This document shows positions 4,597 through 59,877 of a DNA stretch of 64,000 nucleotides, in pieces. The first letter of the stretch is position 1. Each line of letters begins with the position of its first letter. The translations under genes and the position numbers were made by a program. The notes under the pieces were generated by a model that had not been told where the DNA came from, did not search any database, and saw only the letters and a list, made by a program, of their open reading frames with translations. This stretch comes from Bacilli bacterium (GTDB lineage: Bacteria > Bacillota_I > Bacilli_A > RF39 > UBA660), in contig JAFRUZ010000011.1 in the NCBI GenBank assembly GCA_017438635.1, positions 5,766-69,765 of the forward strand, given 5' to 3'.

Positions 4597-4624
4597 AAAA
4601 CACCTCCTAAAAATAGTGCTCTTT

Positions 4625-19959: not shown

Positions 19960-19969
19960 GGAGGTTACA

Positions 19970-21250
19970 ATGAAAAAATATTTAGTTTTAATAGGTTTAT
20001 TGCTATTACCTATGTCTGTTCATGCAGCGAGCGCTAATATTGATCTTACTGCTTCACAAAGTAGTGCTGATATAGGAAAAACAATAGTAGTTACCGTTAA
20101 TGTAAACAGTAGTACTCCTATTGGATATTACGAATACACATTAGATTATGATCATGACAAACTAGAATTAGTAAATGGTAGATCATACAACATAGAAAGT
20201 GCTGATGATGCTAACACTAAAAGTTTTAAAAAGAAATTTACTTTTAAAGTATTAAAAAGTGGTGCTAACAAAGTATCAGTTAAATCATATGCAGTATCTC
20301 CATCAGGAAGTAATGAAAGCATGAGTGTGACAGTAAACCCAGCAAGTATAAATTCTTCAGGAGAAGATACGACTAATTCAAGTGACAATAACAACTTAAA
20401 ATCACTTGAAATAGAAAACTATAAATTAGAACCTTCTTTTAACAAAAATACTACTAACTATGTAGTAAAAATTGAAGATAGCATAAATGAAATAAATATA
20501 AAAGCAGCTGCAGAAAACAGTAAAGCCAGTATTATTGGTGATGGAAAACATACAATAAAAAGTGGCGATAACAGAATAGAAATTACAGTAACTAGTGAGA
20601 GCGGAAAAGATAAAATATATACTATAAAAGTAAGTTTAACTGAAAAAGACCAATTAAAAATAACTATTGGAGGAAGTCAATACATTGTTTTCAAAAAATT
20701 AGATGGCTTCACTGGATTAAAAAATTACAAGATTAAAAAGATAAAAATAAAAAATACTACCATAGAATCACTATATAATGAAAAAACTAAAATTACTTTG
20801 ATAGGATTAAAAGATGAAGGTGGAAAATCAAATCTATACATATACGATGCTGATAAAGATACATATACAGTCTACAACGAAATAAATAGCGACGGTATTT
20901 CTGTCATGCCAGCATCAACAACACAAAAGATAAAAGATTATTATACTTTCAAAGAAACAATTAATAATATTGAAGTAAAATGCTATAAAACATCAAAATC
21001 TTCAAACTATTGTGTTTTATATGGAATTAATTCTGCAACTGGAGAAGAAAACTGGTATGTATATGATTTAGAAGAAAAGACAATACAAAAATACAATAAC
21101 GAAGCCGAAGAGTTTTACAAAGCTAAAATGGAAAGTACAAAAGTATTAATATGTATACTATCAGGAACTACTCTCCTATTTGGTATACTAACAATTGGAT
21201 TTGCAATAAAATCTGGAAAAAAAGAAAATAAAAAAAGCCTTATTCAATAG
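19970..21250 (+). CDS. Surface protein: signal peptide, cohesin-like domain, cadherin-like beta-sandwich domain, C-terminal TM anchor
   Basis: Signal peptide MKKYLVLIGLLLLPMSVHA. The cohesin-like block is IGKTIVVTVNVNS...YEYTLDYDHDKLELV. The cadherin-like block is NNLKSLEIENYKLEPSFNKNTTNYVV...GDNRIEITVTSESG..KIYTIKV. The TM segment is VLICILSGTTLLFGILTIGFAI. An AAGGAGG SD lies 10 nt after the upstream stop. Confidence 0.65.
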   Translation: MKKYLVLIGLLLLPMSVHAASANIDLTASQSSADIGKTIVVTVNVNSSTPIGYYEYTLDYDHDKLELVNGRSYNIESADDANTKSFKKKFTFKVLKSGANKVSVKSYAVSPSGSNESMSVTVNPASINSSGEDTTNSSDNNNLKSLEIENYKLEPSFNKNTTNYVVKIEDSINEINIKAAAENSKASIIGDGKHTIKSGDNRIEITVTSESGKDKIYTIKVSLTEKDQLKITIGGSQYIVFKKLDGFTGLKNYKIKKIKIKNTTIESLYNEKTKITLIGLKDEGGKSNLYIYDADKDTYTVYNEINSDGISVMPASTTQKIKDYYTFKETINNIEVKCYKTSKSSNYCVLYGINSATGEENWYVYDLEEKTIQKYNNEAEEFYKAKMESTKVLICILSGTTLLFGILTIGFAIKSGKKENKKSLIQ

Positions 21251-23250: not shown

Positions 23251-23688
23251 TCATTTTTCAAGTATTATAGTAACAGGTCCATCATTGGTAAAAGAAACTT
23301 TCATCTCAGCACCAAATTCTCCTGTCTCTACTAAAACACCCTTCTCTCTCAGTTTATTATTAAATTCATCATATAAAACAGTAGCTTCTGATCCTCCAAG
23401 CGCTTTAATATAACTAGGTCTATTACCTTTACTAGAATCAGCATATAAAGTAAATTGAGATACAGATAAAATATCACCCTTTACATCTAATAAAGATAAA
23501 TTCATAACACCGTTTTCATCATCAAATACTCTTAAATTTAATACTTTATTTACCATCCAATCTATTTCTTTAGAAGTATCAGTATGAGTAAAACCTACTA
23601 AAAGCATTAAACCTTTATCTATTTTACCTACTACTTTATTATTTACTTCTACTTTTGCATCAATTGCTCTTTGAACTACTACTTTCAT
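23251..23688 (-). CDS. dtd: D-aminoacyl-tRNA deacylase
   Basis: MKVVVQRA...GLMLLVGF...SQFTLYAD..KGNRPS...FGAEMKV.F.NDGPVT is the canonical Dtd pattern. Confidence 0.95.
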   Translation of the reverse strand: MKVVVQRAIDAKVEVNNKVVGKIDKGLMLLVGFTHTDTSKEIDWMVNKVLNLRVFDDENGVMNLSLLDVKGDILSVSQFTLYADSSKGNRPSYIKALGGSEATVLYDEFNNKLREKGVLVETGEFGAEMKVSFTNDGPVTIILEK

Positions 23689-25835
23689 TATTTCATAATC
23701 CTTTCTACATCACTGACATACTTTAATTTATTTAAATTAATAATAAACTTTTCCATTGTTTCTAAATCTTTTACTAATACATCAACTGAATATACATTAT
23801 TATTACTCTTATAAATTAAGTTAACATTTTCAACTATTATATTCATAGCAGCTGCTGCTTGTACTATATCAAAGATTATATTTTCTTTAGAAGTAGAATG
23901 AATAATAATTTCACTATTATATTTATTATTTATAACATCATTCCAAGTAGCATCAATAATTCTATCTTCAAAAAGTTCGATGTTACTGCAGTTCTTTCTA
24001 TGTATACGAATACCACTAGTTTTAGTAATATAACCTACAATTTCATCTCCTGGAAGTGGTAAACAACAGTTAGCTATATGTACTTCAATATTTTTAGTGT
24101 CTCCAACAAGAATGTCACTGTCTCCTACTCTAACGACATTTTTAACTTCTTTTTCTTCTGGTTTTTCTTCATCAGATTCTTGTTTTACTATTGATTTAGC
24201 AGAAAACTTATTATTACCAATATTTAAATATAAATCTTCTACAGAATCTAATTTGAACTTCTCAAAAACTTTCTTTAAATTTTCATCACTCATAAAATCA
24301 CTTATAGGGATCTTTTTTCTTCTAAGTTCTTTTTCAAGTAAATCTTTTCCTTGAGCAATATAATCTTCCTTAGTGTTTCTATTAAAGAAGTTTTTAATTT
24401 TATTTCTAGCGCTAGTAGTCTTAGCAATATTTATCCACTCTCTTGAAGGCCCTTTAGAATTATTATTAGTAATTACTTTAATTACATCTGTATTCTTAAG
24501 TTCATAAGAAAGAGGTACCATACTATTATTAACTATCGCGCCAGTCAGTTTATCACCTATTTGTGTATGAATCTTATAAGCAAAATCAATTGGTGTTGCA
24601 CCTTTAGGTAATTCTATAACATCCCCTTTTGGAGTATAAACATATATATTATTATTAAGTACTTCATTTTTTACTGTATCTACAAAATCTTCATTAGTTA
24701 ATTTATCTTCTTGTAATTCAATAATAGATTTATAAAACTGTAACTTTTGTTCAGTAATATTTTGCATCTCAGTAGCAGCATTTTTATTTTCTTTATAAGC
24801 CCAGTGAGAAGCAATACCATTCTCTGCTATTTCATCCATAGCATAAGTTCTTATTTGAATTTCAAAAATATTACCATCTAATCCTATAACAGTGGTGTGA
24901 AGAGATTGATAAAGATTAGTCTTAGGCATAGCAATAAAATCCTTAAATCTCTTAGGAATAGGTTTATATTTTGAATGAATTAAACCAAGTGCTAAATAAC
25001 ACTCTTGTTCTTCTTCTACAAGTATTCTTATAGCAAGCAAATCATATATATCATTAAAACTACGACCCTTATCTAATTTTCTATATATACTATATATACT
25101 CTTAGCACGACCTTTTATTTGGTGTCTTATACCATTTTTTGTTAAAAGTTCACTTACTTCATCCATCATCTTTTTAACGTATGCTTCACGTTCTACCTTC
25201 TTTTTATTAAGTTTTTCTACTACATCATTATAAGCTTCAGGTTTTAAATATTTAAGTGATAATTCTTCAAGTTCACTTTTTATTTTATTCATACCAAGTC
25301 TATGAGCAATAGGTGTAAGTATTTCTAATGTTTCTTTTGCTTTTTTCTTTTGTTTTTCATGATCAAGCGCATAAAGAGTTCTCATATTATGAAGTCTATC
25401 TGCAAGTTTAATTATAATAACTCTAACATCTTCACTCATACCTACAATTATCTTTTTATAATATGTAGTTAAATATTCATTATCCGTAGAAACATGAATA
25501 TTATTAATCTTAGTAACACCATCTACTAGTTTAGCAACAGAAGGCCCAAATTGTTCTTTAATATCGTTTTTACTAGTTTCAGTATCTTCAACAACATCAT
25601 GTAATAAAGCTGCAATAATAGTTTCTCTATCAGCCTTTATAGATGTAAGAATATCTGCAACAAAAAGAGGATGAACAATATATGGTTCACCAGTTTTACG
25701 ATATTGACCATGATGTTTCTTTTCTGCAAAAGCATATGCCTTATCAATATCTTCTAGTTCATCTTTTGTTAAATACTTTTCAAGTTTTTCTCTTAAATTT
25801 TTATATTCTATAGTTCTATTATCCAAGATTATCAC
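23688..25835 (-). CDS. relA: Bifunctional (p)ppGpp synthetase/hydrolase RelA/SpoT homolog
   Basis: HD domain (HGQYRKTGEPYIVHPL, LLHDVVEDT), synthetase block (YRKLDKGRSFNDIYDLLAIRI, YQSLHTTV, EIQIRT), TGS and ACT-like C-terminus. The start is uncertain: GTG at 25835, or TTG at 25826 with a GAGGTGA SD. Confidence 0.95.
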   Translation of the reverse strand: MIILDNRTIEYKNLREKLEKYLTKDELEDIDKAYAFAEKKHHGQYRKTGEPYIVHPLFVADILTSIKADRETIIAALLHDVVEDTETSKNDIKEQFGPSVAKLVDGVTKINNIHVSTDNEYLTTYYKKIIVGMSEDVRVIIIKLADRLHNMRTLYALDHEKQKKKAKETLEILTPIAHRLGMNKIKSELEELSLKYLKPEAYNDVVEKLNKKKVEREAYVKKMMDEVSELLTKNGIRHQIKGRAKSIYSIYRKLDKGRSFNDIYDLLAIRILVEEEQECYLALGLIHSKYKPIPKRFKDFIAMPKTNLYQSLHTTVIGLDGNIFEIQIRTYAMDEIAENGIASHWAYKENKNAATEMQNITEQKLQFYKSIIELQEDKLTNEDFVDTVKNEVLNNNIYVYTPKGDVIELPKGATPIDFAYKIHTQIGDKLTGAIVNNSMVPLSYELKNTDVIKVITNNNSKGPSREWINIAKTTSARNKIKNFFNRNTKEDYIAQGKDLLEKELRRKKIPISDFMSDENLKKVFEKFKLDSVEDLYLNIGNNKFSAKSIVKQESDEEKPEEKEVKNVVRVGDSDILVGDTKNIEVHIANCCLPLPGDEIVGYITKTSGIRIHRKNCSNIELFEDRIIDATWNDVINNKYNSEIIIHSTSKENIIFDIVQAAAAMNIIVENVNLIYKSNNNVYSVDVLVKDLETMEKFIINLNKLKYVSDVERIMK

Positions 25836-26995: not shown

Positions 26996-27283
26996 TCAAT
27001 TACTTATATAATCGTTATAACCTCCTAAAACATTTACTACATTATAACCTCTATTAGAAAGTTCTAAACAAACTTTAGGGCTCTCTAAACCAGCATTACA
27101 ATATATGTAGTATATACTATCTTTATCTAAATATTTATCAGGATTCATAAGTAAAAAAGAACTAGGTATATTTTTACTACTTGGTATATTACCAATATTA
27201 TATAAATAGTTTTTCCTTATATCTATAATATTAACTTTACCTACCAAACCCTTTAAATCAGTAGCTCTAATATTCTTATACAT
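26996..27283 (-). CDS. Rhodanese-domain protein
   Basis: 95 aa with IIDIRKNYLYNIGNIPSSKNIP and the active-site loop YCNAGLES. Confidence 0.85.
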   Translation of the reverse strand: MYKNIRATDLKGLVGKVNIIDIRKNYLYNIGNIPSSKNIPSSFLLMNPDKYLDKDSIYYIYCNAGLESPKVCLELSNRGYNVVNVLGGYNDYISN

Positions 27284-27360: not shown

Positions 27361-29619
27361 TTATTCATCAAAGAAATCATCAAAGAATTGATCATCAGTA
27401 ACCATAATACCAGATACTGGTGAATCAATAACAGGTTCACTCTTCTTCATTGGAGCTATTTCATCACTTGGTTTAAAACCTGTAAACATAGTAGGAGCAA
27501 TATTAGCCACTTCTTGAGAACTAGAAACAGTTTCAGTTACCTCTTTTTCTTCAGAAACTTCTTGTATTTCTTCTTTCTTTTTAGTTTCTTTAACTGCAGC
27601 TTCTTCTTTCTTCTTTTGTTCCTCTATTTTCTTTCTTTCTTCCTCTTCCTCTTTTTCAAGTTCAGCAATCTTAGCATCAATTTTCTTTACTAAATCGTCA
27701 ACATTCAAACCTGAAGGTTCAGAACTAGACATTGGATTACCAGGCATAGGATTACTATTCTGAATAGGATTAAAAGGATTAGTAGTCATCCCTGGTATAC
27801 CAGGCATATTAGGCATTCCTGACATTCCAGGCATAGCCATACCACCATCTTGCATGCCACCAGCATTTTCTATCATATTCATAAATTTATTTTTTCTTTT
27901 ATCTTTAACAAATTCTTTTATATCAAATACTTTTACTGGTCTCTTTTGTCTTTCAACAAATGGATCAGCATCAACTTTAGGTATATTCCAATCTATTTGA
28001 AAATTTGGAGTTAGTTTAGTTTTATAAGGATTAAGTCTAGTCCTTATAACAATAGCCTCAAACTGTTTCATCTTTTGAAGATCAGCAACAGTTATAAGTG
28101 GTCTAGCTTCTTCTCTTTCTTTTTCACCACTACCTACTTTAACCATTTTATCTCCACAAAGTTCACTGATTTCTTTCAAAGCTGAAAGCTCAGTAGTAAG
28201 CAAATACAAAAGATTAGTACAGTTACTTCTGATAGTTTGAGCTATTTCTTTATTATAAGTAGCCTCAAGCCCTGCAAAGTTTTGAACTATCATTGTAAGA
28301 CGAATATGTCTAGAACGAGCCGCCGCTACCATTGTAGTAATATCTTTAAGTGGCGGCATATTTTGAAACTCATCTAGTATAAAATTAGTTCTTACTGGAA
28401 GTTGCCCTTTATCAGAATGTTGAGCAACATCTATTAATGATTCATATACTTGCTTAATAAATATAGTAGCAAGTGCATGATATGTTTTCTTTTCATCTTG
28501 AATAATCATAAATACTGCTGTTTTCTTTTGACCAATAGAATCTATATCAAAATCATTTTGTGATAACATTTCTGATAAGTTTTCACGTGAAGCAAAAAGT
28601 CTGATTTTTTGCTTAAAAGTAGATAATATAGAACCTTTTGTTTCTTCAGGAGCAGTAATTGTACCAGATGCACTAGTATAAGCTGCACCTGCAGGATCCT
28701 TTTCATTAAAGTATTCCTTAATATATGTACTTCTTCCCCCAAATCTTTCTTCCCCTACAGTAGTCATAAGAGAAATACTATTAAGGTTAATTTCTTCCTC
28801 TTTAGCATCCTCAAATAAACCTAAAGCAAGACCAACAAAGTAGTCAGCAGAAGTCTTTTCCCAAAATGGATCCTTACTTGATCCTCCAGTATCATCATAA
28901 AGAATATTAGCAGCAAGGTCATCTAAAAGTTCCATTGACTTATCAGTATTACCTGCTTGATATAATTTATATGGTAAGTTAAGAGGATTCCAAGTATTTC
29001 CTTTCTGAGGATCACGGAAATTAAGTACAATTATTTGATATCCTTTTTCTTTTAAAAGACCAGCACTTTCACGATAGATTTCACCTTTAGGATCAGTTAC
29101 AATCATCGATTCACCTCTTTTAGCAAGTATCTTAACAAGTGGATGAATTACACATTGAGTTTTACCTGTACCAGTAGAACCGATTACAATATTATGTGTA
29201 TCAGCATCATCAACCCAAAACTTATCACCATTACTAATTATAGGAAAACCAGCGTAATCATAATCAGAATCCCTTACGTTAACTTCCTTTAAAGTATTTT
29301 TTACTTCTTTAGCAGTAGACCATCTTGAAAAACCTTTTTCATCTTTAGGTCCAAAAGATATTCCGGGTCCCCCAACATCTCTATCAAAGAAATAATCCTT
29401 AACTGTTACAAATAAGAAAATCATAGCGAAAATATAAAAGAGTAATACTGCACCTAAATTATGGAAAAGTGCATGAAATGGATCTATACCTGCAAACTTA
29501 CCAGTAGTTGAAAATGAATTAATATTATTAACTAATATTGAAACAACTACTAATAATAGTATTGCAAATGCTCCAAATATCATCCAATCTCTTTTAGTTG
29601 CTTTAAGTCTTAATTTCAT
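27361..29619 (-). CDS. virD4: Type IV coupling protein (VirD4/TraG family) with a long low-complexity C-terminal tail
   Basis: Two N-terminal TM helices. Walker A IGSTGTGKTQ. Walker B FILDEFQNMPPL. ARSRHIRLTMIVQNFAGLE. The tail carries MPGMSGMPNMPGIPGM repeats, an E/K-rich stretch, and ends DDQFFDDFFDE. Confidence 0.9.
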   Translation of the reverse strand: MKLRLKATKRDWMIFGAFAILLLVVVSILVNNINSFSTTGKFAGIDPFHALFHNLGAVLLFYIFAMIFLFVTVKDYFFDRDVGGPGISFGPKDEKGFSRWSTAKEVKNTLKEVNVRDSDYDYAGFPIISNGDKFWVDDADTHNIVIGSTGTGKTQCVIHPLVKILAKRGESMIVTDPKGEIYRESAGLLKEKGYQIIVLNFRDPQKGNTWNPLNLPYKLYQAGNTDKSMELLDDLAANILYDDTGGSSKDPFWEKTSADYFVGLALGLFEDAKEEEINLNSISLMTTVGEERFGGRSTYIKEYFNEKDPAGAAYTSASGTITAPEETKGSILSTFKQKIRLFASRENLSEMLSQNDFDIDSIGQKKTAVFMIIQDEKKTYHALATIFIKQVYESLIDVAQHSDKGQLPVRTNFILDEFQNMPPLKDITTMVAAARSRHIRLTMIVQNFAGLEATYNKEIAQTIRSNCTNLLYLLTTELSALKEISELCGDKMVKVGSGEKEREEARPLITVADLQKMKQFEAIVIRTRLNPYKTKLTPNFQIDWNIPKVDADPFVERQKRPVKVFDIKEFVKDKRKNKFMNMIENAGGMQDGGMAMPGMSGMPNMPGIPGMTTNPFNPIQNSNPMPGNPMSSSEPSGLNVDDLVKKIDAKIAELEKEEEEERKKIEEQKKKEEAAVKETKKKEEIQEVSEEKEVTETVSSSQEVANIAPTMFTGFKPSDEIAPMKKSEPVIDSPVSGIMVTDDQFFDDFFDE

Positions 29620-29642
29620 TACTTGTCGCCTCCTTTAGAAGT

Positions 29643-31433
29643 CTATAGTCCTCCACCACTACCAAATGATTCTAACTCTTCTGGAGTTACTATAACTGAT
29701 ATTCTCATTCTTCTAGAACCACATACAAATAGTGCTTCTCCTTGAGAATATCTCTTTATACTTTCTTTTTCATTATCATTCAAATCTATTAGAAGTGATA
29801 AATCTTCTACAGCTTGTTTTTTAAGTCCCATTACTAGGTAATAAGAAGCGTTATCAAAGATAGCTTTTCCTTGAGTTATTACTTCTCTAGTAGTAAAGTC
29901 ACTTGGTTGTTGAGTAATAATTATATTACCAGTATTATACTTACGAGATCTTCTTTGAATTTGTGCTAAGAAATCAGCTCCAAGTACATTACCTCCAGAT
30001 AAAAGTACATGTGCTTCATCTACCATAAGTACTGTATTTATACTTGAATCTAAACACAAACTCCAAGCATATTTAAGAACATTGAATAATAATGCATTTC
30101 TAATATTTACATCAGTATTCATAAGTTCCCTTATATTAAATACTATAAAATTACTGTTTATAGTTATTGTAGTTTTTCCATTAAAGAAAAATCTAAGTTC
30201 GTTGACAAATGGTCTAACTTTTAATTCAAGTCTTTCCATTATATCTCTTTCATGTGTCATATCTGTCATAGATGTAAGTTTACCTTTAATAGTAGTATAA
30301 ACATCATCAAATGTTGGATAGTTTTGACTCGTAAAATTAGAGAAATCTGTATCAAAACCAATTCCAAATCTTTGATATGTTTCTTGAGTAAGTTCTATAA
30401 ATAAGTTAAGAACATCTTCTTCAATAGATGGGTCATAATACTTCATAAATCCTTTTAAGAATTGAAGAGTTTTAGTAAGTACTGTATAACCAAGTCCTTG
30501 TCTTAATTCTTCATCATCAGCATCTATTAATACTTCAAGTGGATTTATAAGTCCGAATTCACCACCCTTACCTAAATCTATAACATCTCCACCAGTAGCT
30601 TCTACCATTTCTTTAAGTTCGTTTTCAGGATCGATAGCTACTATTTTATAACTATTTCTAATAGCAGTTCTAAGAAGTAATTTTGCAGCAGTTGATTTAC
30701 CACTACCAGAAGTACCTAATATAATCATATTAGCATTAGTTCTATTATGTTCTTTTCTCATTTGATATAAGAATTGATTAAACATAACGACACCACCAGA
30801 GAAATCTGTACCAAGAAGTACTGAAGGCCCTGGATCTTTAATACTATCAAATATATATGGATACATACCAGCCATAGTTGGGCTTGGCATTATAGTACCA
30901 ATACGTTCCTCAATTTCTTGTTTTGGAAATACTGGTATCATAGATTTTAATACTTGTTCTTGTTCAAATCTAAGAGGTATAGCACGAAGTTGCATAGCAT
31001 CTAAATAATTCTTAATTTGAATTCTCTTTAAATCTACATCTTCTTTAGAATCACCAGAAACAATTATATGCATTTGAAAATCAAATGTTTTCGATTGAGC
31101 TGAAGCAAGTTGTTGAATAAATGATTCCAAAGTTTCGTAATCTTGTCTAATCGATTCTTGATAAGTTGCATCTCTTTCTTCTTGATATCTAGTTTTCATA
31201 GCTGCAAGTTCTTTGTTAAGCATCTTAGTAAGAGTAGAAAATGGGACTGGAATATGTTTAATAACAATTTTTACTCCAGGCATATTAGTAATATTAGATA
31301 AGAAACCTACTCCAACATATCTAGGATAACCAACAACAGATAGAATAGTCATATATTTATCTGAAGCTACAACCATACTACTATTTGAAAAATCAAGCCC
31401 TTTCGGAGCTACCTCACTTTTGAAAAAACTCAT
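29643..31433 (-). CDS. virB4: VirB4-family T4SS ATPase (middle plus ATPase domains)
   Basis: Walker A ILGTSGSGKST, Walker B VLMVDEAHVLL, IIITQQPSDF, and the N-terminal block YMTILSVVGYPRYVGVGFLSNI typical of Gram-positive VirB4 (PrgJ/Orf16/TcpF-like). Confidence 0.9.
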   Translation of the reverse strand: MSFFKSEVAPKGLDFSNSSMVVASDKYMTILSVVGYPRYVGVGFLSNITNMPGVKIVIKHIPVPFSTLTKMLNKELAAMKTRYQEERDATYQESIRQDYETLESFIQQLASAQSKTFDFQMHIIVSGDSKEDVDLKRIQIKNYLDAMQLRAIPLRFEQEQVLKSMIPVFPKQEIEERIGTIMPSPTMAGMYPYIFDSIKDPGPSVLLGTDFSGGVVMFNQFLYQMRKEHNRTNANMIILGTSGSGKSTAAKLLLRTAIRNSYKIVAIDPENELKEMVEATGGDVIDLGKGGEFGLINPLEVLIDADDEELRQGLGYTVLTKTLQFLKGFMKYYDPSIEEDVLNLFIELTQETYQRFGIGFDTDFSNFTSQNYPTFDDVYTTIKGKLTSMTDMTHERDIMERLELKVRPFVNELRFFFNGKTTITINSNFIVFNIRELMNTDVNIRNALLFNVLKYAWSLCLDSSINTVLMVDEAHVLLSGGNVLGADFLAQIQRRSRKYNTGNIIITQQPSDFTTREVITQGKAIFDNASYYLVMGLKKQAVEDLSLLIDLNDNEKESIKRYSQGEALFVCGSRRMRISVIVTPEELESFGSGGGL

Positions 31434-32089
31434 ATTGGCATCACGCTCCCAGATTCATATTTTCTTCCCCCATTTAAGAAATTATCAATAATCATTCTCA
31501 AATCATCGTTACTAGTTTGACTAGCAATAAGTCCCGCACTAGCAAGAGAATTAATCATATTACGAAGTTTCTTTTGAAGAAGTTCACCATTCTTTTCCTT
31601 AAATAAAAGGAAATATTCTGTATCAACAACATCATTATTTATGAAATAATCACCTTTTTGTAAATCTTGTGCAATTAATTTACGAATTCTAGGATCTTGA
31701 GTACTATTGTATAAAACTTGAAGTTCTGCTTGATATACTGCAATATCAACAGGACGATCTGCTACAACTAGCCAGAATTCAAAATCCAAAGTGTTGTAAA
31801 AATTCATTAAACCAATAAGTGCATTATCCATAGAACCTTGATCAAGGATAAATATGTTTCTTGGTTGAACTTTTACACCTGTAATCATTTCATTTTTGTT
31901 GTTGTACATGATACCATTACTAATTGCTTTTAATGGTAACCAGTTCTCAGTATATTTAGCATTAGTTTGTGCTGCTTTAGGCATTTTTTTAGTACCAGCA
32001 TCACCTTTACTAGCAATACCAGCTTGAGAACTGTTAATACCACTAGTCACACTTTGATTAACTTGATTGTTCATCATTTGATTGTTCAT
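31430..32089 (-). CDS. Separate ORF resembling the N-terminal domain of Gram-positive VirB4 proteins
   Basis: ENWLPLKAISNGIMYNNKNEMITGVKVQPRNIFILDQGSMDNALIGLMNFYNTLDFEFWLVV resembles the N-terminal region of Orf16/PrgJ-type VirB4. Its stop overlaps the virB4 ATG by 4 nt (ATGA). Combined, the two ORFs are roughly the size I recall for single-chain homologs. The start is set at MNNQMMNNQ (GGAGAGGTTGGTG upstream). Confidence 0.55.
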   Translation of the reverse strand: MNNQMMNNQVNQSVTSGINSSQAGIASKGDAGTKKMPKAAQTNAKYTENWLPLKAISNGIMYNNKNEMITGVKVQPRNIFILDQGSMDNALIGLMNFYNTLDFEFWLVVADRPVDIAVYQAELQVLYNSTQDPRIRKLIAQDLQKGDYFINNDVVDTEYFLLFKEKNGELLQKKLRNMINSLASAGLIASQTSNDDLRMIIDNFLNGGRKYESGSVMPI

Positions 32090-32390
32090 ATTTATAACAC
32101 CAACCTCTCCATACATATTTTCTTCTATTTACAAAATAGAATCTATACATTTCACGAAAGAATATTCTTGCGTTGTGATAATTTGGAATTGGAAACACCA
32201 AAAACCCTGAAACAAATGCCGGTAATATTATAAGCAAACTAATAAAGAAAGATGCGCTATGGAAAATTGCAAACAGTAGAAATGATATACCAATTCCAAC
32301 TGCAGCAATTATAGCATCAGTAGGTGTTAAAAAACCAAATATTAAACTCTGCTTCTTACTATTAGCAGGCACTAAATAATTATAATCCAT
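32058..32390 (-). CDS. Small two-TM membrane protein in the VirB3/PrgI/Orf17 position
   Basis: 110 aa with two adjacent hydrophobic helices (AIIAAVGIGISFLLFAIF and FFISLLIILPAFVSGFLVF) and a basic C-terminus. It lies immediately upstream of, and overlaps, the VirB4 N-domain ORF. Confidence 0.5.
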   Translation of the reverse strand: MDYNYLVPANSKKQSLIFGFLTPTDAIIAAVGIGISFLLFAIFHSASFFISLLIILPAFVSGFLVFPIPNYHNARIFFREMYRFYFVNRRKYVWRGWCYKYEQSNDEQSS

Positions 32391-32407
32391 CTAGTATCAC
32401 ATCCTTT

Positions 32408-35041
32408 TTATTTATTATCACTATAATACATTTTTTCCAATGCTTTAAGTTCTTGATATTCTTTACTATTAGTAATTCTAATTTCATCTTTATCAAGTTC
32501 TCTCATTGCATCATAAGTAGATAATTTAATATCTTGAACATTCTTAAATCCTTTAGCAAGAGTATTTAGGTCTAATCCTTGACCAGATAAAGCCTGTGCA
32601 AGAGCAGGATTAGTTTTAATAGCATCAATAAATGTTTGCATCTTTTGTTCTGCTGTATCTACTCCTTTAGCATAAGCACCAGCTTTGAAATCACCAAGTG
32701 ATATTTCACGACCATCTCTATCTCTAATACCCAAATGATCAATGTTTAATGCAGCATCCCCGTTATATGTTCCATCAGCATTTCTATTAGAATTCATTTG
32801 TTGGCCAACATTAGTAAGTATATTTTTAAAATCATTATCAGTAATTAAGCCTTGAGAATTAAGTTTAGCCAAGTCATTAATTGCTGGTATTTTCTTAACA
32901 GCACTTTCAAAATCATCAGCAAAGCCTTGCATACTTTTTGTTATTTCTTGTAAGGCCTTTATATTATTCAATTTTTCTTCAACTTTATCTGTAGGTTTAC
33001 CAACTCTAAATTTTGAAATAATACCTTCAGCTAATACTTTGGTAGGTTTAATACCATCCTGTCTAAGCCTATCAATATAACCTTTATTATCTGTAGCCAC
33101 AGATGAGCCACCTTCAAATGGTTTACCAGAAACACCAGATCTAGCTCCTCTAAAGAATCCAGAAAATGTACCACCGAGAACAGTTTTTCCAAATGCAACT
33201 CCACTATTTAATACATCATTTTTTAAATAATCTTTACGAGTATCTTTTAACCATTGCTTTTGACTATCATCACCTTGCCTTGCAGCAGCTATAGCATTTT
33301 TTCTAGTTTCTCTACTCTGTTTAACAGAATCCAAATTTCTATAATCACCATACGCTTTAATTCCACTTACTAAACCTGCGCCAACTCCAATAGCTGCCCC
33401 AGCAGTCATTCCTATAGCCTTTTTACCCATATCTGTAATTTCTTTGAACGAACCAGATCCAACTTCAATACCAAATATTTTAGATATCATAGTTGGTATC
33501 ATCTTAGCAAATAACAATATAGCTATAATATAGAAGAATAATAAAAGTCCAGATCCTTCAACAGCAGTACTTACTGATTTTAATAAAACTATAGCAAATG
33601 AAATAGCAATCAATTTTAAGAACAAATCTAAATATGTTAGGATATACATTTCACCCCAACGTTTAAATATCTTATCATTTGGATCCACATAACTAATTAT
33701 AGGTATTGGAGCCATTATTTCAAGTAAAATCAATTTAAATCTACGAATAATTACCTCAACACATAATACCGCTATCCATACAACTAACCCTATACCTGCA
33801 ACCATTCCTATTACAAAATCTAATGTCATTGCAGAATTATCATCATCAAGAGCATTTTCTATATCTTTATTAGCAACATTTGACATTAACATTTTTTCTT
33901 TCAATGGTTCACACTCACTATCACCATTACACTCAATAAAAGAAGATAAAGCGCTTTGTGCAAACTGAATAGCCTCATTGCTAACACCAAATAAAAAACT
34001 ATTTTCAGCACTTATTCCTAATGATTCTGAAATTGTTTCAGCATTAGAGCCAGCAGCAGGTATTCCACTTTTTTGAACAGCAGCCATCATTGTTTCCGCA
34101 GAATGCCAACCACCTACATATCTAGAATATACTTCTTCCCAAGACGAAGCATTTCCATAACCATCAGACGCTTTATTACGTCCACCTCCAACTTCTTCTA
34201 TTACATTAGGGCAATTATGCTTACTTGGCCAACCATTTTCTAATGTAGGCCAATTCATAGCACCATTTTCCCAAAGACCTCCTGCAACACTTACTCCAAA
34301 ATCAGCTTCATATGGAGAAGAAGAATCAGAAGTAAAACTATAATCACAACCACCTAATTTACCACTACACAATTTATTTGTAACACCAGTCTCTGTATCA
34401 GGATACAAAGTAAGATGAAGCATATGCGTAATACTCTTTTCACTCTTAGGAGTATTTCCACCATTCTTATTAGCTATATTCTGACTTGATGCAGTAATAT
34501 AAACATAATAACAATCATATCCTTGGTTAGAATTAACTGCATATACATTATCAACAAATAATTCATTTTTACTATTTGACTTACTTAAAGTACCTTTCTC
34601 ACCATTTACCTCAGGTAATATATTATTTATCAAACCATCCTCTGCTAATAAGGCTCTTTCTATACGCATTAAAATACCTGGATCGTCAGGATTTTTATTA
34701 AAAATCCAACCGTTTGGAACGAATAATAACAACATTGCTAAACTTGTTATTATTCTAGTAATCATTTTAGCAGGACCTGCTTGAGCATCATTAAGTTTAT
34801 CAGGTTCAATAAGAAAGTTAATCATTGAAAGAGTAACCCTAAATAACATAAATACCCCTGCAAGAGTATACATAGTAGTCATGACATTAGTAGTAGTAAT
34901 AATAAAATTATCAGGTACTCCACCATCACTGTAATAACCAGTTAATTTAAGCATAATATCATATATTCTAGCTACTGTACCAAACAATCCGGCTAAAATA
35001 CCGAACCCTATACTAGCCCATCCTAATAATATCTGAATCAT
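32408..35041 (-). CDS. Large polytopic membrane protein, VirB6/TrbL-like, with a Cys-rich ectodomain of about 270 aa and a soluble C-terminal region of about 300 aa
   Basis: 877 aa with multiple TM helices at residues 1-110 and about 400-560. Six Cys residues lie in the intervening loop (GYDCYY, KLCSGKLGGCDY, KHNCPN, IECNGDSECEP). The position and topology are those of the VirB6-like component. An AGGAGG SD lies 3 nt after the pilin-1 stop. Confidence 0.6.
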   Translation of the reverse strand: MIQILLGWASIGFGILAGLFGTVARIYDIMLKLTGYYSDGGVPDNFIITTTNVMTTMYTLAGVFMLFRVTLSMINFLIEPDKLNDAQAGPAKMITRIITSLAMLLLFVPNGWIFNKNPDDPGILMRIERALLAEDGLINNILPEVNGEKGTLSKSNSKNELFVDNVYAVNSNQGYDCYYVYITASSQNIANKNGGNTPKSEKSITHMLHLTLYPDTETGVTNKLCSGKLGGCDYSFTSDSSSPYEADFGVSVAGGLWENGAMNWPTLENGWPSKHNCPNVIEEVGGGRNKASDGYGNASSWEEVYSRYVGGWHSAETMMAAVQKSGIPAAGSNAETISESLGISAENSFLFGVSNEAIQFAQSALSSFIECNGDSECEPLKEKMLMSNVANKDIENALDDDNSAMTLDFVIGMVAGIGLVVWIAVLCVEVIIRRFKLILLEIMAPIPIISYVDPNDKIFKRWGEMYILTYLDLFLKLIAISFAIVLLKSVSTAVEGSGLLLFFYIIAILLFAKMIPTMISKIFGIEVGSGSFKEITDMGKKAIGMTAGAAIGVGAGLVSGIKAYGDYRNLDSVKQSRETRKNAIAAARQGDDSQKQWLKDTRKDYLKNDVLNSGVAFGKTVLGGTFSGFFRGARSGVSGKPFEGGSSVATDNKGYIDRLRQDGIKPTKVLAEGIISKFRVGKPTDKVEEKLNNIKALQEITKSMQGFADDFESAVKKIPAINDLAKLNSQGLITDNDFKNILTNVGQQMNSNRNADGTYNGDAALNIDHLGIRDRDGREISLGDFKAGAYAKGVDTAEQKMQTFIDAIKTNPALAQALSGQGLDLNTLAKGFKNVQDIKLSTYDAMRELDKDEIRITNSKEYQELKALEKMYYSDNK

Positions 35042-35044
35042 ACA

Positions 35045-35377
35045 CTAACCTCCTATATGACAAGACCCACTTGCCAAACCTGCTAAATCTAGTATTGCAT
35101 CTATTAAAATTGGAACAAAGAAGATAGCTAAACCAATAATAACTCTTTTAATAGATCTAGAAATAGCAGCACTCATAGCTTCTTCTTTTTGAGCAGTAAC
35201 TGCTTTTAGAATATCTACAGAACATAAAAGTATAACAAGAATAGGAACAGCAATTTGAATTGCTTTATAAACATCTCTTAAAACCTCTGTTAATTCAGCT
35301 CCTAAAACTGATTCACAATCAGTAATAGTAGTAAATATTCCTAAAACATTTAAGTTACCTAAAATAGCATTAATCAT
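35045..35377 (-). CDS. VirB2/TrbC-like pilin-like protein, paralog 1
   Basis: Two-TM hairpin with a K/R-rich loop (AVPILVILLCSVDILKAV...KRVIIGLAIFFVPILIDAIL). One Cys lies before TM1 (TDCES) and one after TM2 (GSCHIGG). The start at MINAIL follows an AAGGTGA SD. Confidence 0.55.
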   Translation of the reverse strand: MINAILGNLNVLGIFTTITDCESVLGAELTEVLRDVYKAIQIAVPILVILLCSVDILKAVTAQKEEAMSAAISRSIKRVIIGLAIFFVPILIDAILDLAGLASGSCHIGG

Positions 35378-35481
35378 ATACATCACCTTCATTTATATTT
35401 TCAAACTATTAACCTATTTTATTATATCAAAAAAAAAGATGCAAAACAACAAATTTCACATCTTTTTTTATTATTTTATTC

Positions 35482-35796
35482 CTATTTAAAGCCCATTGCT
35501 GCAAAGCATGCATTAGTAGTGGCATCAGTTTGTCCTATTCCAGTAAATATTGCCTTAACAATAACTACAACAAAGAATACAACTACACCATAAATAACTC
35601 TCTTAATTAACATCTTTTGAGCAGACTTAATTTCATCATCTTTACCAGCCATTACAGCCTTTCCTAAATCTAATGTTCCTAATAATACTATCATTATAGG
35701 AATAACCCATTGAATAATTGTAATAATTGTACCAACAGTACTCCAAATTGGTTGTGTAGCTTCACAGAACTCTCTAGCTCCTAATATTTGTAACAT
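35482..35796 (-). CDS. VirB2/TrbC-like pilin-like protein, paralog 2
   Basis: 104 aa with the same hairpin topology. It shares the motif IVLLGTLDLGKAV-AG-D with paralog 3. Cys residues lie at FCEAT and NACFAA. Confidence 0.6.
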   Translation of the reverse strand: MLQILGAREFCEATQPIWSTVGTIITIIQWVIPIMIVLLGTLDLGKAVMAGKDDEIKSAQKMLIKRVIYGVVVFFVVVIVKAIFTGIGQTDATTNACFAAMGFK

Positions 35797-35841
35797 ATTT
35801 TCTACCTCTTTCCTCTACAAATTTTCTTACTTTATAAACAA

Positions 35842-35870
35842 ATTATACTATACATATAATTTTGTGTCAA
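35842..35870 (-). promoter_or_regulatory. Consensus sigma-A promoter for pilin paralog 2
   Basis: The minus strand reads TTGACA, a 17-nt spacer, then TATAAT. Confidence 0.55.
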
Positions 35871-35886
35871 ACTATTTTTATATAAA

Positions 35887-36294
35887 TTATGCTTCTTCAC
35901 TAGAATGATTAGAAACACCACTATCAGTACTGTCATAACCATCAATACTACCAAAATCTACATCTTTTATATAACTTTCACATTCACTACCATTAGGTTT
36001 AGTAGCACACTGCCAACAAACTCTTGGAGCCCCACTGTTTAAGTCTAATCCAAGTAAACCAAAAATTACATAGACTATGTTAAATACAAAGAATATAGCA
36101 ATACCATATACTAGTCTTAGTAAAAATGATTTTTGTGACTCTTTAATTTTCTTATCTTCTCCTGCTATTACAGCTTTACCTAAATCTAGTGTACCTAATA
36201 ATACTATAATAATTGGAATAGCAATTCTTATTATATAAATAATAAACCCTACTACCTTCCAAATTCCTGCAGTTTCTGCACAAAATGAACTCAT
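35887..36294 (-). CDS. VirB2/TrbC-like pilin-like protein, paralog 3 (extended Cys-rich, acidic C-terminus)
   Basis: 135 aa. MSSFCAETAGIW..IIIVLLGTLDLGKAVIAGEDKKIKESQK..second TM..RVCWQCATKPNGSECESY. GGTGGTGA SD. Confidence 0.6.
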   Translation of the reverse strand: MSSFCAETAGIWKVVGFIIYIIRIAIPIIIVLLGTLDLGKAVIAGEDKKIKESQKSFLLRLVYGIAIFFVFNIVYVIFGLLGLDLNSGAPRVCWQCATKPNGSECESYIKDVDFGSIDGYDSTDSGVSNHSSEEA

Positions 36295-36318: not shown

Positions 36319-36348
36319 ATTATACCATATTTTTTATCTTTTAGTCAA
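36319..36348 (-). promoter_or_regulatory. Promoter for pilin paralog 3 and the head of the T4SS set
   Basis: The minus strand reads TTGACT, an 18-nt spacer, then TATAAT with a TGn extension (TGGTATAAT). Confidence 0.5.
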
Positions 36349-36411: not shown

Positions 36412-36846
36412 ATGAAGAAATATAAATGGTTAATAATCTTAGGTGTAGTAATTCTAACATTATCTATAATTGCAATAGTATTCTCTGATAAACCAATAGA
36501 TGAAGATAAGTATTTACGTGAAATACCATTATCAAAAGTTATTAAAAAAATAGATAATAAAGAAACATTTATTCTGTATATAAAACAAACAAGCTGTGAG
36601 CATTGTAAAGCCTTCTCTCCTGTATTTGCAAGAGTATTAATGGAAAACAAGCTTAAAGCTTATGTATTAAATCTTACAAACTTATCTGATGAAGAAAATG
36701 AAACATATAACAAAAAGTTTAATGTAAATGGTACTCCTACAGTTCTCTTCTACAGTGAAGGTAGTGAAAGCCTAGTTAGAATTGAAGGAGAACAAACTAG
36801 AGATAGAATAATATCTAAATTACAAGCCTCAGGATTTCTAAAATAA
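36412..36846 (+). CDS. Membrane-anchored thioredoxin-fold thiol-disulfide oxidoreductase (CxxC = CEHC)
   Basis: N-terminal anchor KWLIILGVVILTLSIIAIVF, then FILYIKQTSCEHCKAFSPVF and GTPTVLFY (the cis-Pro loop of the thioredoxin fold). GGGAGGTG SD. Confidence 0.8.
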   Translation: MKKYKWLIILGVVILTLSIIAIVFSDKPIDEDKYLREIPLSKVIKKIDNKETFILYIKQTSCEHCKAFSPVFARVLMENKLKAYVLNLTNLSDEENETYNKKFNVNGTPTVLFYSEGSESLVRIEGEQTRDRIISKLQASGFLK

Positions 36847-36872
36847 AAGTAGATACAAATCTACTTTTTTTT
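36846..36872 (+). terminator. Rho-independent terminator after the thioredoxin gene
   Basis: Stem AAAGTAGAT, loop ACAA, stem ATCTACTTT followed by TTTTT. Confidence 0.6.
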
Positions 36873-37748
36873 GTTTTTTAAATAATATGGTTTTATTAAT
36901 CTATCCCCACTACTTATTTTATTAATTAATTTCCTTACAATCTGTATATTTTTTATCTCATCGTTTGAAAACTCTATTTTAAAAGGAACTGAAATAATTA
37001 TAAAAAACAGTTTCATCTCATCAATAGTTAATGGATATTTTTCTAAATAATGATTTAACAAAACACTAAAATCTATTTTATCGTGATATTTATTATAAAT
37101 ACCTACTAAATCATATATAGGAAGATCCACTTTAGAGTTATTCCAACTTATTAAATATGAATTCTTATTTACAAGTACATGCTCTAAATCTAAGTTATTA
37201 TGAATGAATACTACTCTTTGTTTATTATTACTTTTAATTATTTCATACCAATTATCCAATTCATTTTTACAAAAAGATAAAGATCCATAAATCTTTGAAA
37301 TATTACGCGCTAACAAATAATGTGAAGGAGACATATATATTTCACTATCTATAGAATCATTTAAAGCAATATAATAATTATATAAATACTCTATTTTTTT
37401 TAATAAATCTTCATATATAATTTTATAGTCATCTATATCTATGTTTTTATATCTAGTAGTCTTAGTATGTAATAAAATAATCAAGTTTATCATTTCATAA
37501 AGTCTTTCTTCTGAAGAAATATTACTATCGTTTATATATGAAAATACATCATAATTATCAATCTTATAATAAACAGGGAAACTATTAAAACTCCTAGAGT
37601 ATAAATAATCAAACTTATCTTTTAAATTACAATTATTATCTTTTATTACAAAGTTATTTTTACCATCATTAATTAAATATGCACTATTAATCTTTCTTAT
37701 ACTTTTAATTGTTAAACCATTATTCTTAAATAATTTATAATTAATCAT
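36861..37748 (-). CDS. CotS/YsxE-like phosphotransferase-fold (spore coat kinase-like) protein
   Basis: VFIHNNLDLEHVLVNKNSYLISWNNSKVDLPIYDLV fits the HxDxxxxN...D motif spacing of the APH/CotS family. Its 8-nt overlap with the upstream SpoVID-like gene mirrors the Bacillus spoVID-ysxE pairing. Confidence 0.6.
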   Translation of the reverse strand: MINYKLFKNNGLTIKSIRKINSAYLINDGKNNFVIKDNNCNLKDKFDYLYSRSFNSFPVYYKIDNYDVFSYINDSNISSEERLYEMINLIILLHTKTTRYKNIDIDDYKIIYEDLLKKIEYLYNYYIALNDSIDSEIYMSPSHYLLARNISKIYGSLSFCKNELDNWYEIIKSNNKQRVVFIHNNLDLEHVLVNKNSYLISWNNSKVDLPIYDLVGIYNKYHDKIDFSVLLNHYLEKYPLTIDEMKLFFIIISVPFKIEFSNDEIKNIQIVRKLINKISSGDRLIKPYYLKNKKK

Positions 37749-38373
37749 TAAAACTAGGTATTACTATTTTAGAACCTACTTTTATACTATCTAAGTCATT
37801 ATAATCTCCTAAATCATCTTTTGTTATGTTATATTTTTCTAAAACACTATCTATGCTATCCCCTTCTTTAAATATATATACTTTATAAGTTAAATAAGTA
37901 TCACTTTGTTTTTTTATTGATTCTTGAACCTCTAAAAAAGAAGTTATTTCTGGTTTCTCTTCTTCAATACATCTATCATCATCTCTTAATACTTCTACTA
38001 CCTCTTCCTCTTTTGCTTCTTTTTCTTCTTTAATTTCTTCTTTTTCTTTCTTTTGTAAATTATCTATTACTAGCACAATATTTATTCTAAGTACTTCATC
38101 ATCTATTATCTCATAATGAAAATCATCTATATCCACAGTAGCATGAAACGTATCATATTCATCACTTATTGCTATTTCACATGGTATTTTATAACTATAA
38201 GTTTCTTCTAAAGCAGAAGTTTCTATCATTTTATAACTACCATTTATATAAAAATTACCACTTATTAAATCTTCTCCCTTTAACATTAAATCATTGTCTA
38301 AACTTATAGAAATAATTTCCCCAATCTTAGTCTTAAATGTAATATCTTTTGTAAAAGGTATAGTTTGTTTCAT
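37741..38373 (-). CDS. SpoVID-like protein: N-terminal SPOCS-type domain, E/K-rich linker, C-terminal LysM
   Basis: N-terminus MKQTIPFTKDITFKTKIGEIISISLDNDL. C-terminal LysM TYKVYIFKEGDSIDSVLEKYNITKDDLGDYNDLDSIKVGSKIVIP. Confidence 0.65.
   Translation of the reverse strand: MKQTIPFTKDITFKTKIGEIISISLDNDLMLKGEDLISGNFYINGSYKMIETSALEETYSYKIPCEIAISDEYDTFHATVDIDDFHYEIIDDEVLRINIVLVIDNLQKKEKEEIKEEKEAKEEEVVEVLRDDDRCIEEEKPEITSFLEVQESIKKQSDTYLTYKVYIFKEGDSIDSVLEKYNITKDDLGDYNDLDSIKVGSKIVIPSFND

Positions 38374-57305: not shown

Positions 57306-59877
<2,572 letters not shown>

Follow-up and report, generated by a model that had tools for sequence, protein, structure and literature searches.

Genes of the type IV secretion locus

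The 64-kb stretch analysed here (the window), part of contig JAFRUZ010000011.1 from a bacterium of the order RF39, contained a compact set of genes encoding a type IV secretion system (T4SS). The set consisted of eight co-oriented open reading frames (ORFs) on the minus strand at 27361-36294, all intact, as had been described in an earlier note made from the nucleotide sequence. It began with three VirB2-like pilin paralogues: pil1 (35887..36294; 135 aa), a protein with two transmembrane (TM) segments and a Cys-rich C-terminal tail, pil2 (35482..35796; 104 aa) and pil3 (35045..35392; 115 aa, or 110 aa from an alternative start). These were followed by an extended VirB6/TrbL-like polytopic channel protein (32408..35041; 877 aa), a VirB3/PrgI-like two-TM protein (32058..32390; 110 aa), a TrsD-like protein equivalent to the N-terminal domain of VirB4 as an ORF of its own (31430..32116; 228 aa), the VirB4 ATPase-domain ORF (29643..31433; 596 aa) and a VirD4/TraG-type coupling protein with a long disordered C-terminal extension (27361..29619; 752 aa). 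Spacers of 90 nt (pil1-pil2) and 89 nt (pil2-pil3) separated the pilin genes, and the genes downstream were packed or overlapping, in agreement with the layout first reported: the gaps measured 3 nt between pil3 and the VirB6 gene, 17 nt between the VirB6 and PrgI genes and 23 nt between VirB4 and VirD4, the PrgI and TrsD-like ORFs overlapped by 59 nt, and the TrsD-like/VirB4 junction was a 4-nt ATGA overlap. The GC content of the set was 31% compared with 27% for the window, inside the range of other conserved genes of the window. The set reads as intact and expressed-looking and, besides its pilin array, has every predicted inner-membrane component of a Gram-positive T4SS.

Profile matches of VirB4, VirD4 and the VirB6-like protein assign the locus to the MPF-FATA class of T4SSs. 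The coupling protein matched PF02534 (E 7e-56), TrwB_AAD_bind and TraG-D_C in Pfam and scored 306 bits against NCBIfam NF045973 (conju_CD1115), above the cutoff of 250, which bore out its original identification. The VirB4 ATPase ORF matched P-loop_TraG (PF19044), AAA_10 (PF12846) and DUF87 in Pfam, and VirB4_plasma (338 bits) and conju_CD1110 (168 bits) in NCBIfam. The VirB6-like protein, likewise identified as such at the outset, matched PF19597 (TrbL_4) with 29.6 bits where the gathering score is 27, and this family was found in nearly all of its homologues; its matches to the NCBIfam families MMCAP2_0566 and Mbov_0396 fell below cutoff. When its AlphaFold2 (AF2) model was searched with Foldseek, the top four PDB matches were TrwI/VirB6 of R388, all of them weak (E about 0.5), and the ectodomain of the model had no match.

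The arrangement of VirB4 as two ORFs was supported by two alignments. The PrgI, N-domain and ATPase ORFs tiled the fused Mycoplasma VirB4 model of NCBIfam at 4-94, 92-278 and 299-893, the middle segment being the match of the TrsD-like ORF to NF045975 (E 2e-12), and in an hhalign comparison (probability 97%, E 3e-11) the TrsD-like family profile matched a fused 870-aa VirB4 over residues 31-187. Because of this tiling and alignment, the N-domain and the ATPase of VirB4 were taken to be encoded by two ORFs, as had been proposed. The TrsD-like protein was identified by its NCBIfam, hhalign and precomputed PF26593 (TraC-like) matches; scanning the family with a local Pfam copy matched nothing, and profiles of the TrsD-like and pilin alignments returned nothing meaningful from all PDB chains. 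The TrsD-like ORF was separate in all 81 loci compared, which is consistent with the split being the known TrsD plus VirB4 arrangement, an ancestral state and no defect. A frameshifted VirB4 pseudogene was considered and rejected, as the split and the frame offset were kept in all relatives. The neighbouring ORF, present at the same position in 77 of the 81 loci, was a less secure case. Its position and two-TM topology fit the VirB3/PrgI identity first suggested, but its PF12666 score of 25.6 bits was just under the gathering score of 27, and it tiled the VirB3 part of the fused Mycoplasma model weakly (E 0.025).

The identification of three VirB2/TrbC-like proteins held at the level of the family, with the window copies individually below threshold. 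Against the PF18895 (T4SS_pilin) threshold of 26.6 bits, pil2 scored 17.9 and pil3 24.3, while pil1 was unmatched and was placed by its membership of the pilin cluster. Among 48 pilin relatives, 23 matched PF18895 (best E 1.8e-9) and one matched TrbC/VirB2; the cluster comprised 121 copies in 63 loci, with one to five genes per locus. The AF2 model of pil2 was a two-helix hairpin (pLDDT 83.6), and the pilins shared a basic cytoplasmic loop. A Cys before TM1 was invariant in the 48-sequence sample, and in most of the 121 copies both flanks of the TM hairpin carried one Cys or more. By the positive-inside rule, the conserved Cys before TM1 and after TM2 should both face outward. A disulfide joining the two tails would make such a pilin a non-covalent-backbone counterpart of TrbC/VirB2 pilins, which are cyclised.

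Signals for expression were found in the pilin array. The ATG of pil1 was preceded by a ribosome-binding site, GGTGGTGA, and sites resembling sigma-70 promoters, identified by consensus match only, lay on the minus strand before pil1 (36319..36348; TTGACT-18-TATAAT with an extended TG, 11 of 12 matches) and before pil2 (35842..35870; a perfect TTGACA-17-TATAAT, 12 of 12). A hairpin with a T-run 3' of pil2 (35421..35479, minus strand; inverted repeat I9) was terminator-like or attenuator-like.

In VirD4, the acidic end of the protein (27364..27399, minus strand; TDDQFFDDFFDE) carried an invariant acidic/aromatic tip, FFDDFF, in all 59 homologues, preceded by a hypervariable linker; the motif was found nowhere but in VirD4, in the window and the related loci. 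In the VirB6-like protein, the TM blocks were conserved, and the ectodomain (about residues 150-400) and the C-terminal helical domain were hypervariable, with four near-invariant Cys in the ectodomain. Its best non-self homologue was 55% identical, whereas VirB4 reached 96-97%. A duplicated module of pilin and VirB6 genes was present in loci L010, L012 and L016, and the paired paralogues of about 780-865 aa recall the VirB6 paralogue families of Rickettsiales.

Two genes bordering the set may belong to it. Upstream, divergent from pil1 on the plus strand, lay a candidate accessory thioredoxin (36412..36846) with a TM anchor, a CxxC motif (CEHC) and matches to PF00085, to PedC-like proteins and, weakly, to TraF of the F plasmid. 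It adjoined the pilin array in about 23 loci by cluster count, nearly all of the compact clade described below, and its divergence tracked that of VirB4 (rho 0.77); it is a plausible oxidoreductase for the pilins and VirB6. Directly downstream of VirD4, on the minus strand, a single-domain rhodanese (26996..27283; PF00581) held the same place in 33 loci of both architectures, and the genes beyond it differed (truB here, rmuC or others elsewhere). The earlier note had listed TruB, the rhodanese, the thioredoxin and a ysxE/spoVID-like pair simply as neighbours; all were there, the pair as an APH/CotS-like and a LysM/SpoVID-N-like protein, but the linkage of the thioredoxin and rhodanese to the cluster in many genomes suggested that these two may be more than bystanders.

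Conservation, inheritance and mobility

The distribution of the set was determined by a scan that took one genome per species, in which the best 80 of 494 genomes with a VirB4 relative were examined as loci. The relatives were metagenome-assembled genomes (MAGs) of uncultured gut Bacilli, and the two that were placed fell in the order RF39. Candidatus Coprosoma belongs to the GTDB order RF39, as does the family CAG-611 (PMC8035907). The members of RF39, a gut order that has not been cultured, have highly reduced genomes and are auxotrophic in many respects, lacking fatty-acid and several amino-acid and vitamin pathways (PMC6784871). Across the best 80 of the 494 species-level genomes, VirB4 was 70-97% identical to that of the window, and the gene order pilins-VirB6-VirB3-TrsD-VirB4-(hydrolases)-VirD4-rhodanese was common to all 80 loci (tblastn and ORF clustering). 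VirB4 had matches in more than 7,200 clusters of proteins grouped at 90% identity, and the 120 listed ones were all about 596 aa long. The wider flanks varied between species and the cluster stayed intact, so that a comparison of synteny, which the earlier note had proposed, showed a set conserved in its order. A second proposed comparison, of presence and absence among conspecifics, gave the same picture: all eight conspecific contigs with the window's rhodanese gene carried the T4SS too, and no clean empty site was seen.

Rates of change between the window and its closest relative, L029, indicated common descent with the chromosome. Synonymous divergence (dS) was 0.54-1.03 for the T4SS genes and 0.49-1.13 for the flanking housekeeping genes. 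The ratio of nonsynonymous to synonymous divergence (dN/dS) was 0.04 for VirB4, 0.09 for TrsD, 0.155 for VirD4 and 0.15 for PrgI, with RelA at 0.07, and the divergences of the components correlated with one another across species (rho 0.75-0.79).

Genes and sites of mobility were missing, as had been claimed. Pfam and NCBIfam profiles found no relaxase, recombinase, integrase or transposase in the eight genes, and neither a hydrolase nor a VirB8-like domain by these profiles. In the rest of the 64 kb, reading of the ORFs and a Pfam search of ten unassigned ORFs yielded no relaxase, recombinase or transposase and no VirB8-like or hydrolase domain, and among the 80 loci no gene family recognisable as a relaxase was conserved near the cluster. 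Direct or inverted repeats that could serve as flanking att sites amounted to AT-rich chance matches only. Within this scope, the RF39 locus shows none of the defining features of an integrative and conjugative element (ICE), namely relaxase, recombinase, att repeats, polymorphism and foreign divergence. A still-mobile or recently immobilised ICE, with its relaxase, oriT and recombinase outside the window, would account for the homology of the module to ICE conjugation modules, and coupling-protein and relaxase genes are indeed unlinked from virB4 in some elements (PMC12102498). Such an element is nevertheless very unlikely, as housekeeping genes flanked the cluster for 27 kb on each side with no recombinase and no repeats, dS resembled that of the flanks, and the GC content was in the range of the conserved genes. 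The immediate flanks (thioredoxin and rhodanese) were conserved across species while the wider context varied, and the set was present in every conspecific contig and in 494 genomes.

The earlier note had left a choice between a domesticated minimal T4SS and the stripped remnant of an ICE that still looks intact. For a decaying, non-functional remnant speaks the absence from the window clade of the hydrolase, VirB8-like and relaxase genes. However, the eight ORFs were intact in all species sampled, dN/dS was 0.04-0.16 for the machine genes, dS was like that of the flanks, the promoter and coupling signals were preserved and the split of VirB4 is ancestral, so that this option is effectively refuted. 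The domesticated option was upheld by the common order in 80 genomes, purifying selection, the lack of an empty site and the lack of mobility genes. With both a decaying remnant and an active ICE ruled out by conserved order, dS like the flanks, purifying selection and conspecific presence, these comparisons indicate that the RF39 T4SS is a chromosomal, fixed, strongly conserved and vertically inherited feature.

Some VirB4-bearing contigs were labelled as Bacteroidaceae, Muribaculaceae or Lachnospiraceae. Horizontal spread into these families was considered and rejected; the contigs had 28-34% GC, and the long ones, whose flanks were visible, had RF39 synteny, for which reasons they were read as mis-binned. 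In two complete-chromosome records, L044 (OZ007038.1, 105952-127724 of 1.54 Mb) and L055 (OZ007022.1, 78240-100012 of 1.52 Mb), the cluster lay in the first 5-8% of the sequence. If these records begin at dnaA, the T4SS would be origin-proximal, as reported for Patescibacteria.

Architectures and relationship to known systems

Two architectures were found within the relatives. Species with VirB4 at least 79% identical to that of the window had the compact form, with the divergent thioredoxin gene upstream of the cluster and mostly no genes between VirB4 and VirD4 (L012 and L021 were exceptions); in L017, L022 and L027, also of the compact form, VirD4 was not adjacent to VirB4. Species with VirB4 at most 73% identical, including the complete 1.54-Mb chromosome L044, had 2.5-6 kb between VirB4 and VirD4. 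This insert encoded large, membrane-anchored hydrolases (Peptidase_C39_2 with NlpC/P60, Glucosaminidase with CHAP, CHAP, and SpoIID-like; L044 11799-17288, L058 11793-14219, L088 11823-14941) and repeated lipoproteins of roughly 220 aa with a C-terminal TM segment. The lack of a hydrolase, to which the earlier note had drawn attention, is therefore true of the window clade but not of its sister clades. In the more distant clade, the VirB2-like pilin array had, directly upstream and in the same orientation, a Tad/Flp-like pilus cluster (L044 2848-4849, L065 82-2002, L088 535-5221). It encoded an RcpC/CpaB-like protein, a T2SSE ATPase, two polytopic proteins, TadE-like (minor-pilin-like) small proteins and a 335-aa protein, and formed with the T4SS one supercluster of about 20 kb, of which the Tad part was absent from the window. 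A tblastn search of the 64-kb window found no homologue of the sister-clade hydrolase, lipoprotein or Tad genes, and the pattern suggests that the window clade has lost or relocated the insert hydrolases and lipoproteins.

Genes for YhcG/DUF1016 PDDEXK nucleases occurred in multiple copies in or beside the cluster in L012 (10768-12600), L027, L040, L055 and L019, with two copies between VirB4 and VirD4 in L012. A 157-aa ORF of the window (63467-63940) had only the C-terminal YhcG/DUF1016 nuclease domain. These may be selfish or defence genes.

The RF39 set is best read as a conjugation module of the type found in ICEs of Erysipelotrichales and Mollicutes, captured and fixed on the chromosome, because its core order recurs in a mobile element of Thomasclavelia ramosa and because Mycoplasma ICE families were its best curated matches. 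All RF39 VirB4 proteins fell in one cluster of a 50%-identity library; the next relatives were two proteins at 44% and 41% identity, and below them, at 30-34%, the relatives with a name came from T. ramosa, Coprobacillus, Solobacterium, other Erysipelotrichaceae and a Mycoplasmatota plasmid. In one of the nearer relatives, P0270 (GCA_016648615.1), whose VirB4 was 41% identical to that of the window, the locus had a separate TraC-like/TrsD ORF and adjoined relA, uvrD and a NUDIX gene; chromosomal capture may thus extend beyond the tight RF39 cluster. The T. ramosa locus (L086/L087) shared with the RF39 set a small two-TM protein, a VirB6-like protein (704 aa), VirB3 (121 aa), a TrsD-like protein (225 aa), VirB4 (606 aa) and a hydrolase, and its VirB4 was split and 31% identical to that of the window. 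Unlike the RF39 set, however, that module had a single pilin-like gene, was sporadic and not lineage-wide, and lay in an element with an SSB, a SpaA pilus and sortase, a Toprim primase and a serine recombinase.

The resemblance to Mollicutes ICEs, which the earlier note had pointed out, was supported in that Mbov_0397, MMCAP2_0566 and Mbov_0396 were the best curated matches, all of them below cutoff. The Mycoplasma ICE (CDS5/VirD4, CDS17/VirB4, CDS16/VirB6-like) provided the best-scoring families for the RF39 VirB4 and VirB6-like proteins, with scores of 338 bits against a cutoff of 590 for Mbov_0397 (VirB4), 33.8 against 70 for Mbov_0396 and 45.1 against 90 for MMCAP2_0566. Both systems are minimal sets without a VirB8-like protein, the compact RF39 clade also being without a hydrolase, and MMCAP2_0566 joins a pilin-like N-terminal region to VirB6-like TM segments. 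In contrast to the Mycoplasma ICE, in which VirB3, the N-domain and the ATPase are fused, the window and 80 relatives had three ORFs. The RF39 set also differed in that a DDE transposase, the CDS14 lipoprotein and the rest of the ICE backbone were absent, in being fixed in the chromosome and not sporadic, and in having a walled host.

Systems with a similar parts list are known from other lineages. In MPF-FATA plasmids of the pGO1/pSK41 type, a separate TrsD homologous to the VirB4 N-terminus lies beside VirB4 (PMC12102498), but these are plasmid-borne conjugation systems with a relaxase and without a VirB2-like pilin array (PMC12857230). Pilin arrays are mentioned in PMC12102498 and extended VirB6 proteins in PMC12857230. 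A further parallel lies in the Rickettsiales. Their rvh T4SS is a chromosomal, relaxase-less system of a reduced-genome host, with tandem VirB2 paralogues and extended, sometimes duplicated VirB6 proteins with large hydrophilic domains. The RF39 set resembled it in all these respects (reduced-genome host, chromosomal relaxase-less system, VirB2 paralogues, extended or duplicated VirB6). The rvh system differs in being a diderm P-type system with an outer-membrane core complex and another class of VirB4, in hosts that are intracellular pathogens.

The closest functional parallel was the T4SS of Patescibacteria (Quinonero-Coronel et al. 2025, PMC12102498; the Southlakia epibionticum system is reviewed in PMC12857230), which takes the place of the ComB system that the earlier note had offered. 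Like the RF39 set, it is chromosomal, lineage-wide and without a linked relaxase (for RF39, within the 64-kb window), with a VirB4 of MPF-FATA type, a separate TrsD-like protein, VirB3/PrgI (in RF39 a candidate) and VirB6 (PMC12102498). Its arrays of divergent VirB2-like pilins belong to the same Pfam family, PF18895, its hosts also have reduced genomes and many auxotrophies, and it has peptidoglycan hydrolases downstream of virB4, as in RF39 only the sister clades do. The RF39 host, however, is of a classical Bacillota order, and its VirD4 is linked and conserved with a unique invariant tip, whereas the coupling protein of Patescibacteria (candidate phyla radiation, CPR) is usually unlinked and that of Southlakia is not essential (PMC12102498). 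Patescibacteria were not met among the distant VirB4 relatives; of 30 looked up, the named minority were all Bacillota or Mycoplasmatota. Because of these named relatives and the linkage of VirD4 in RF39, membership of the RF39 VirB4 in the Patescibacteria clade is unlikely, and the resemblance may be due to parallel evolution. According to a 2025 review, VirB2-like pilins and a cell-serving T4SS are known among Gram-positive-type bacteria from Patescibacteria only (PMC12857230). In RF39, inside Bacillota, the Gram-positive conjugation machine with VirB2-like pilins would then have been domesticated across a whole lineage for a second time, apparently independently. No paper linking RF39 with a T4SS was found in the literature searched, which left subscription journals outside its scope.

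Proposed function and other features of the window

The explanation that we favour, with fairly good confidence, is a domesticated MPF-FATA T4SS fixed in RF39 and used for contact-dependent transfer of a macromolecule. By this mechanism, a VirD4 hexamer would recruit a substrate from the cytoplasm, probably by way of its invariant acidic/aromatic tip and all-alpha domain, and would hand it to a membrane channel in which VirB4 (the ATPase together with the separately encoded TrsD-like N-domain) is combined with VirB3 and the extended VirB6. The VirB2-like pilins, all three made in excess and each from its own promoter, would build a filament or conduit outside the cell. The disulfide predicted between the outward N- and C-terminal tails of the pilins could be formed by the membrane-anchored thioredoxin linked to them, and the same enzyme could form the disulfides of the VirB6 ectodomain. 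The hypervariable VirB6 ectodomain, together with the pilins, may give species-specific contact with a partner cell, and contact-dependent transfer of the macromolecule would be the output. RF39 bacteria probably depend on moving some substrate directly between cells.

Several results weigh against this explanation. Each pilin of the window scored below the Pfam threshold and none had a cleavable signal peptide, and the pilin model returned generic helical hairpins from Foldseek, with no specific match to solved pilins. The structural match of VirB6 was weak (E about 0.5). Roles for the thioredoxin and rhodanese are proposed from linkage only, and the divergence of the rhodanese tracked that of VirB4 weakly (rho 0.32, p 0.07). 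Neither a relaxase (within the 64-kb window) nor an oriT or effector candidate was identified, and the compact clade had no linked cell-wall hydrolase or VirB8-like protein for crossing peptidoglycan. All the genomes were MAGs of uncultured organisms.

The nature of the substrate was ranked by comparison with characterised systems. Coupling proteins recruit cytoplasmic substrates, and the ComB uptake system has no VirD4. Since VirD4 was retained, tightly linked and constrained, with an invariant tip, export or exchange is favoured over pure uptake. Relaxase-independent exchange of DNA or nucleoprotein between RF39 cells, with no linked relaxase, is placed first as a tentative preference, since the curated families nearest to the set come from Mycoplasma ICEs, whose machinery supports unconventional chromosomal transfer. 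That transfer needs the ICE conjugative machinery (bioRxiv 10.1101/2021.07.12.452010; PMC12857230). Protein effectors come second as a weaker candidate, and uptake from a partner cell, in the manner of a Patescibacteria-like acquisition, comes third and is rather unlikely.

A more specialised form of the second candidate is a dedicated protein-effector or antibacterial T4SS, in which proteins recruited by VirD4 would be injected into competitors or host cells, or released. Such systems include the Xanthomonas X-T4SS, Rickettsiales rvh and Streptococcus suis 89K. A relaxase-less set that retains VirD4 would suit this use; pilin arrays and an extended VirB6, duplicated in L010, L012 and L016, recall the Rickettsiales effector systems; and sister clades have large hydrolases inside the cluster. 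These hydrolases, however, look like ordinary wall openers of the VirB1/PrgK type and are missing from the window clade. No conserved candidate effector or immunity pair lay in or beside the cluster in the compact clade, and no other protein in the loci had a recognisable VirD4-tip motif. Effector delivery as the dedicated purpose of the system is judged improbable.

The third candidate also has a stronger form, a Patescibacteria-like acquisition machine in which the T4SS and its VirB2-like filament would give the auxotrophic RF39 cell a connection with another bacterium, or with a host cell, for the import of DNA, lipids or other molecules, as a near-essential function. The core parts list matches that of the Patescibacteria system (PMC12102498), which is indispensable to Southlakia's epibiotic growth (PMC12857230), and RF39 is auxotrophic and uncultured (PMC6784871). 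In Saccharibacteria, type IV pili and a T4SS are needed jointly, and the Tad-like pilus cluster upstream in the sister clades recalls this. VirB4 is under very strong selection, and the surface parts are hypervariable. The present data gave no sign of an epibiotic habit, and RF39 genomes, at about 1.5-1.6 Mb, are much larger than those of Patescibacteria. The nearest named VirB4 relatives were Bacillota or Mycoplasmatota, so the parallel may be convergent, and VirD4 is tightly linked and highly constrained, whereas known uptake systems such as ComB do without it. We regard this form as doubtful.

A related and broader idea is that RF39, as Patescibacteria did, independently turned a conjugation machine of Gram-positive type, with its VirB2-like pili, into an organelle that is nearly essential and couples the cell physically to others, so that macromolecules can be obtained or exchanged. 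This is judged improbable; if true, RF39 would be partner-dependent, and its T4SS would be both the reason why the order resists culture and a handle for culturing it.

Contact-dependent exchange, the mechanism preferred here, is a concrete hypothesis about how RF39 lives, and one that can be tested; the order is common in the guts of humans and animals, auxotrophic and never cultured. The system lends itself to comparisons aimed at learning what relaxase-less Gram-positive T4SSs move, and it can be studied in graded forms, from ICE-borne (Erysipelotrichaceae) through extended with hydrolases and Tad (some RF39 families) to minimal (the family of the window). The invariant VirD4 tip and the link between pilins and thioredoxin are specific biochemical leads.

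The description of the host as a walled spore-former, made in the earlier note, was upheld in its first half. The organism is regarded as walled because of the mur and other wall genes in the window (murB, murG, a D-Ala-D-Ala carboxypeptidase-like gene, uppP and a sortase). Sporulation had weak support in the window, where 36861-38373 gave weak SpoVID-N/LysM and APH (YsxE-like; CotS-like) matches. In the relatives, SpoVAC, SpoVAD and SpoVAEB were encoded 1.4 kb downstream of VirD4 (L088/L089, 18545-20333), and sporulation genes therefore exist in this reduced-genome group; the genome is Candidatus Onthousia-like, with VirB4 about 73% identical to that of the window and its placement in RF39 unconfirmed.

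The remainder of the window was largely made up of housekeeping genes, among them suf, infB, nusA, ffh, relA, truB, murB, murG, ftsQ, pyrH, ligA and ezrA. The relA/spoT gene at 23688-25835 was a single ORF of 715 aa, and in a conspecific metagenome contig (L081, 11456-13757) it was called as two genes (515 and 201 aa), which is either a strain-level disruption or an assembly error. At 672-4635, a Bro-N domain protein (2869-3663) stood amid four ORFs with no Pfam match, and the group may be a small phage-derived or defence islet in the otherwise housekeeping region. Just downstream of ligA, the sortase gene (56547-57293, plus strand) had beside it, on the minus strand (57303-57878), a gene for a protein whose N-terminus bears a prepilin-type methylation motif. 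A plus-strand block at 17143-21250, in which the GC skew was locally reversed, was kept in contig L081. It encoded a secreted protein of 938 aa with six SH3b repeats and a C-terminal third of about 330 aa with no domain assignment, followed by a cadherin-like surface protein of 426 aa; the SH3b-repeat protein might be a wall-binding enzyme.

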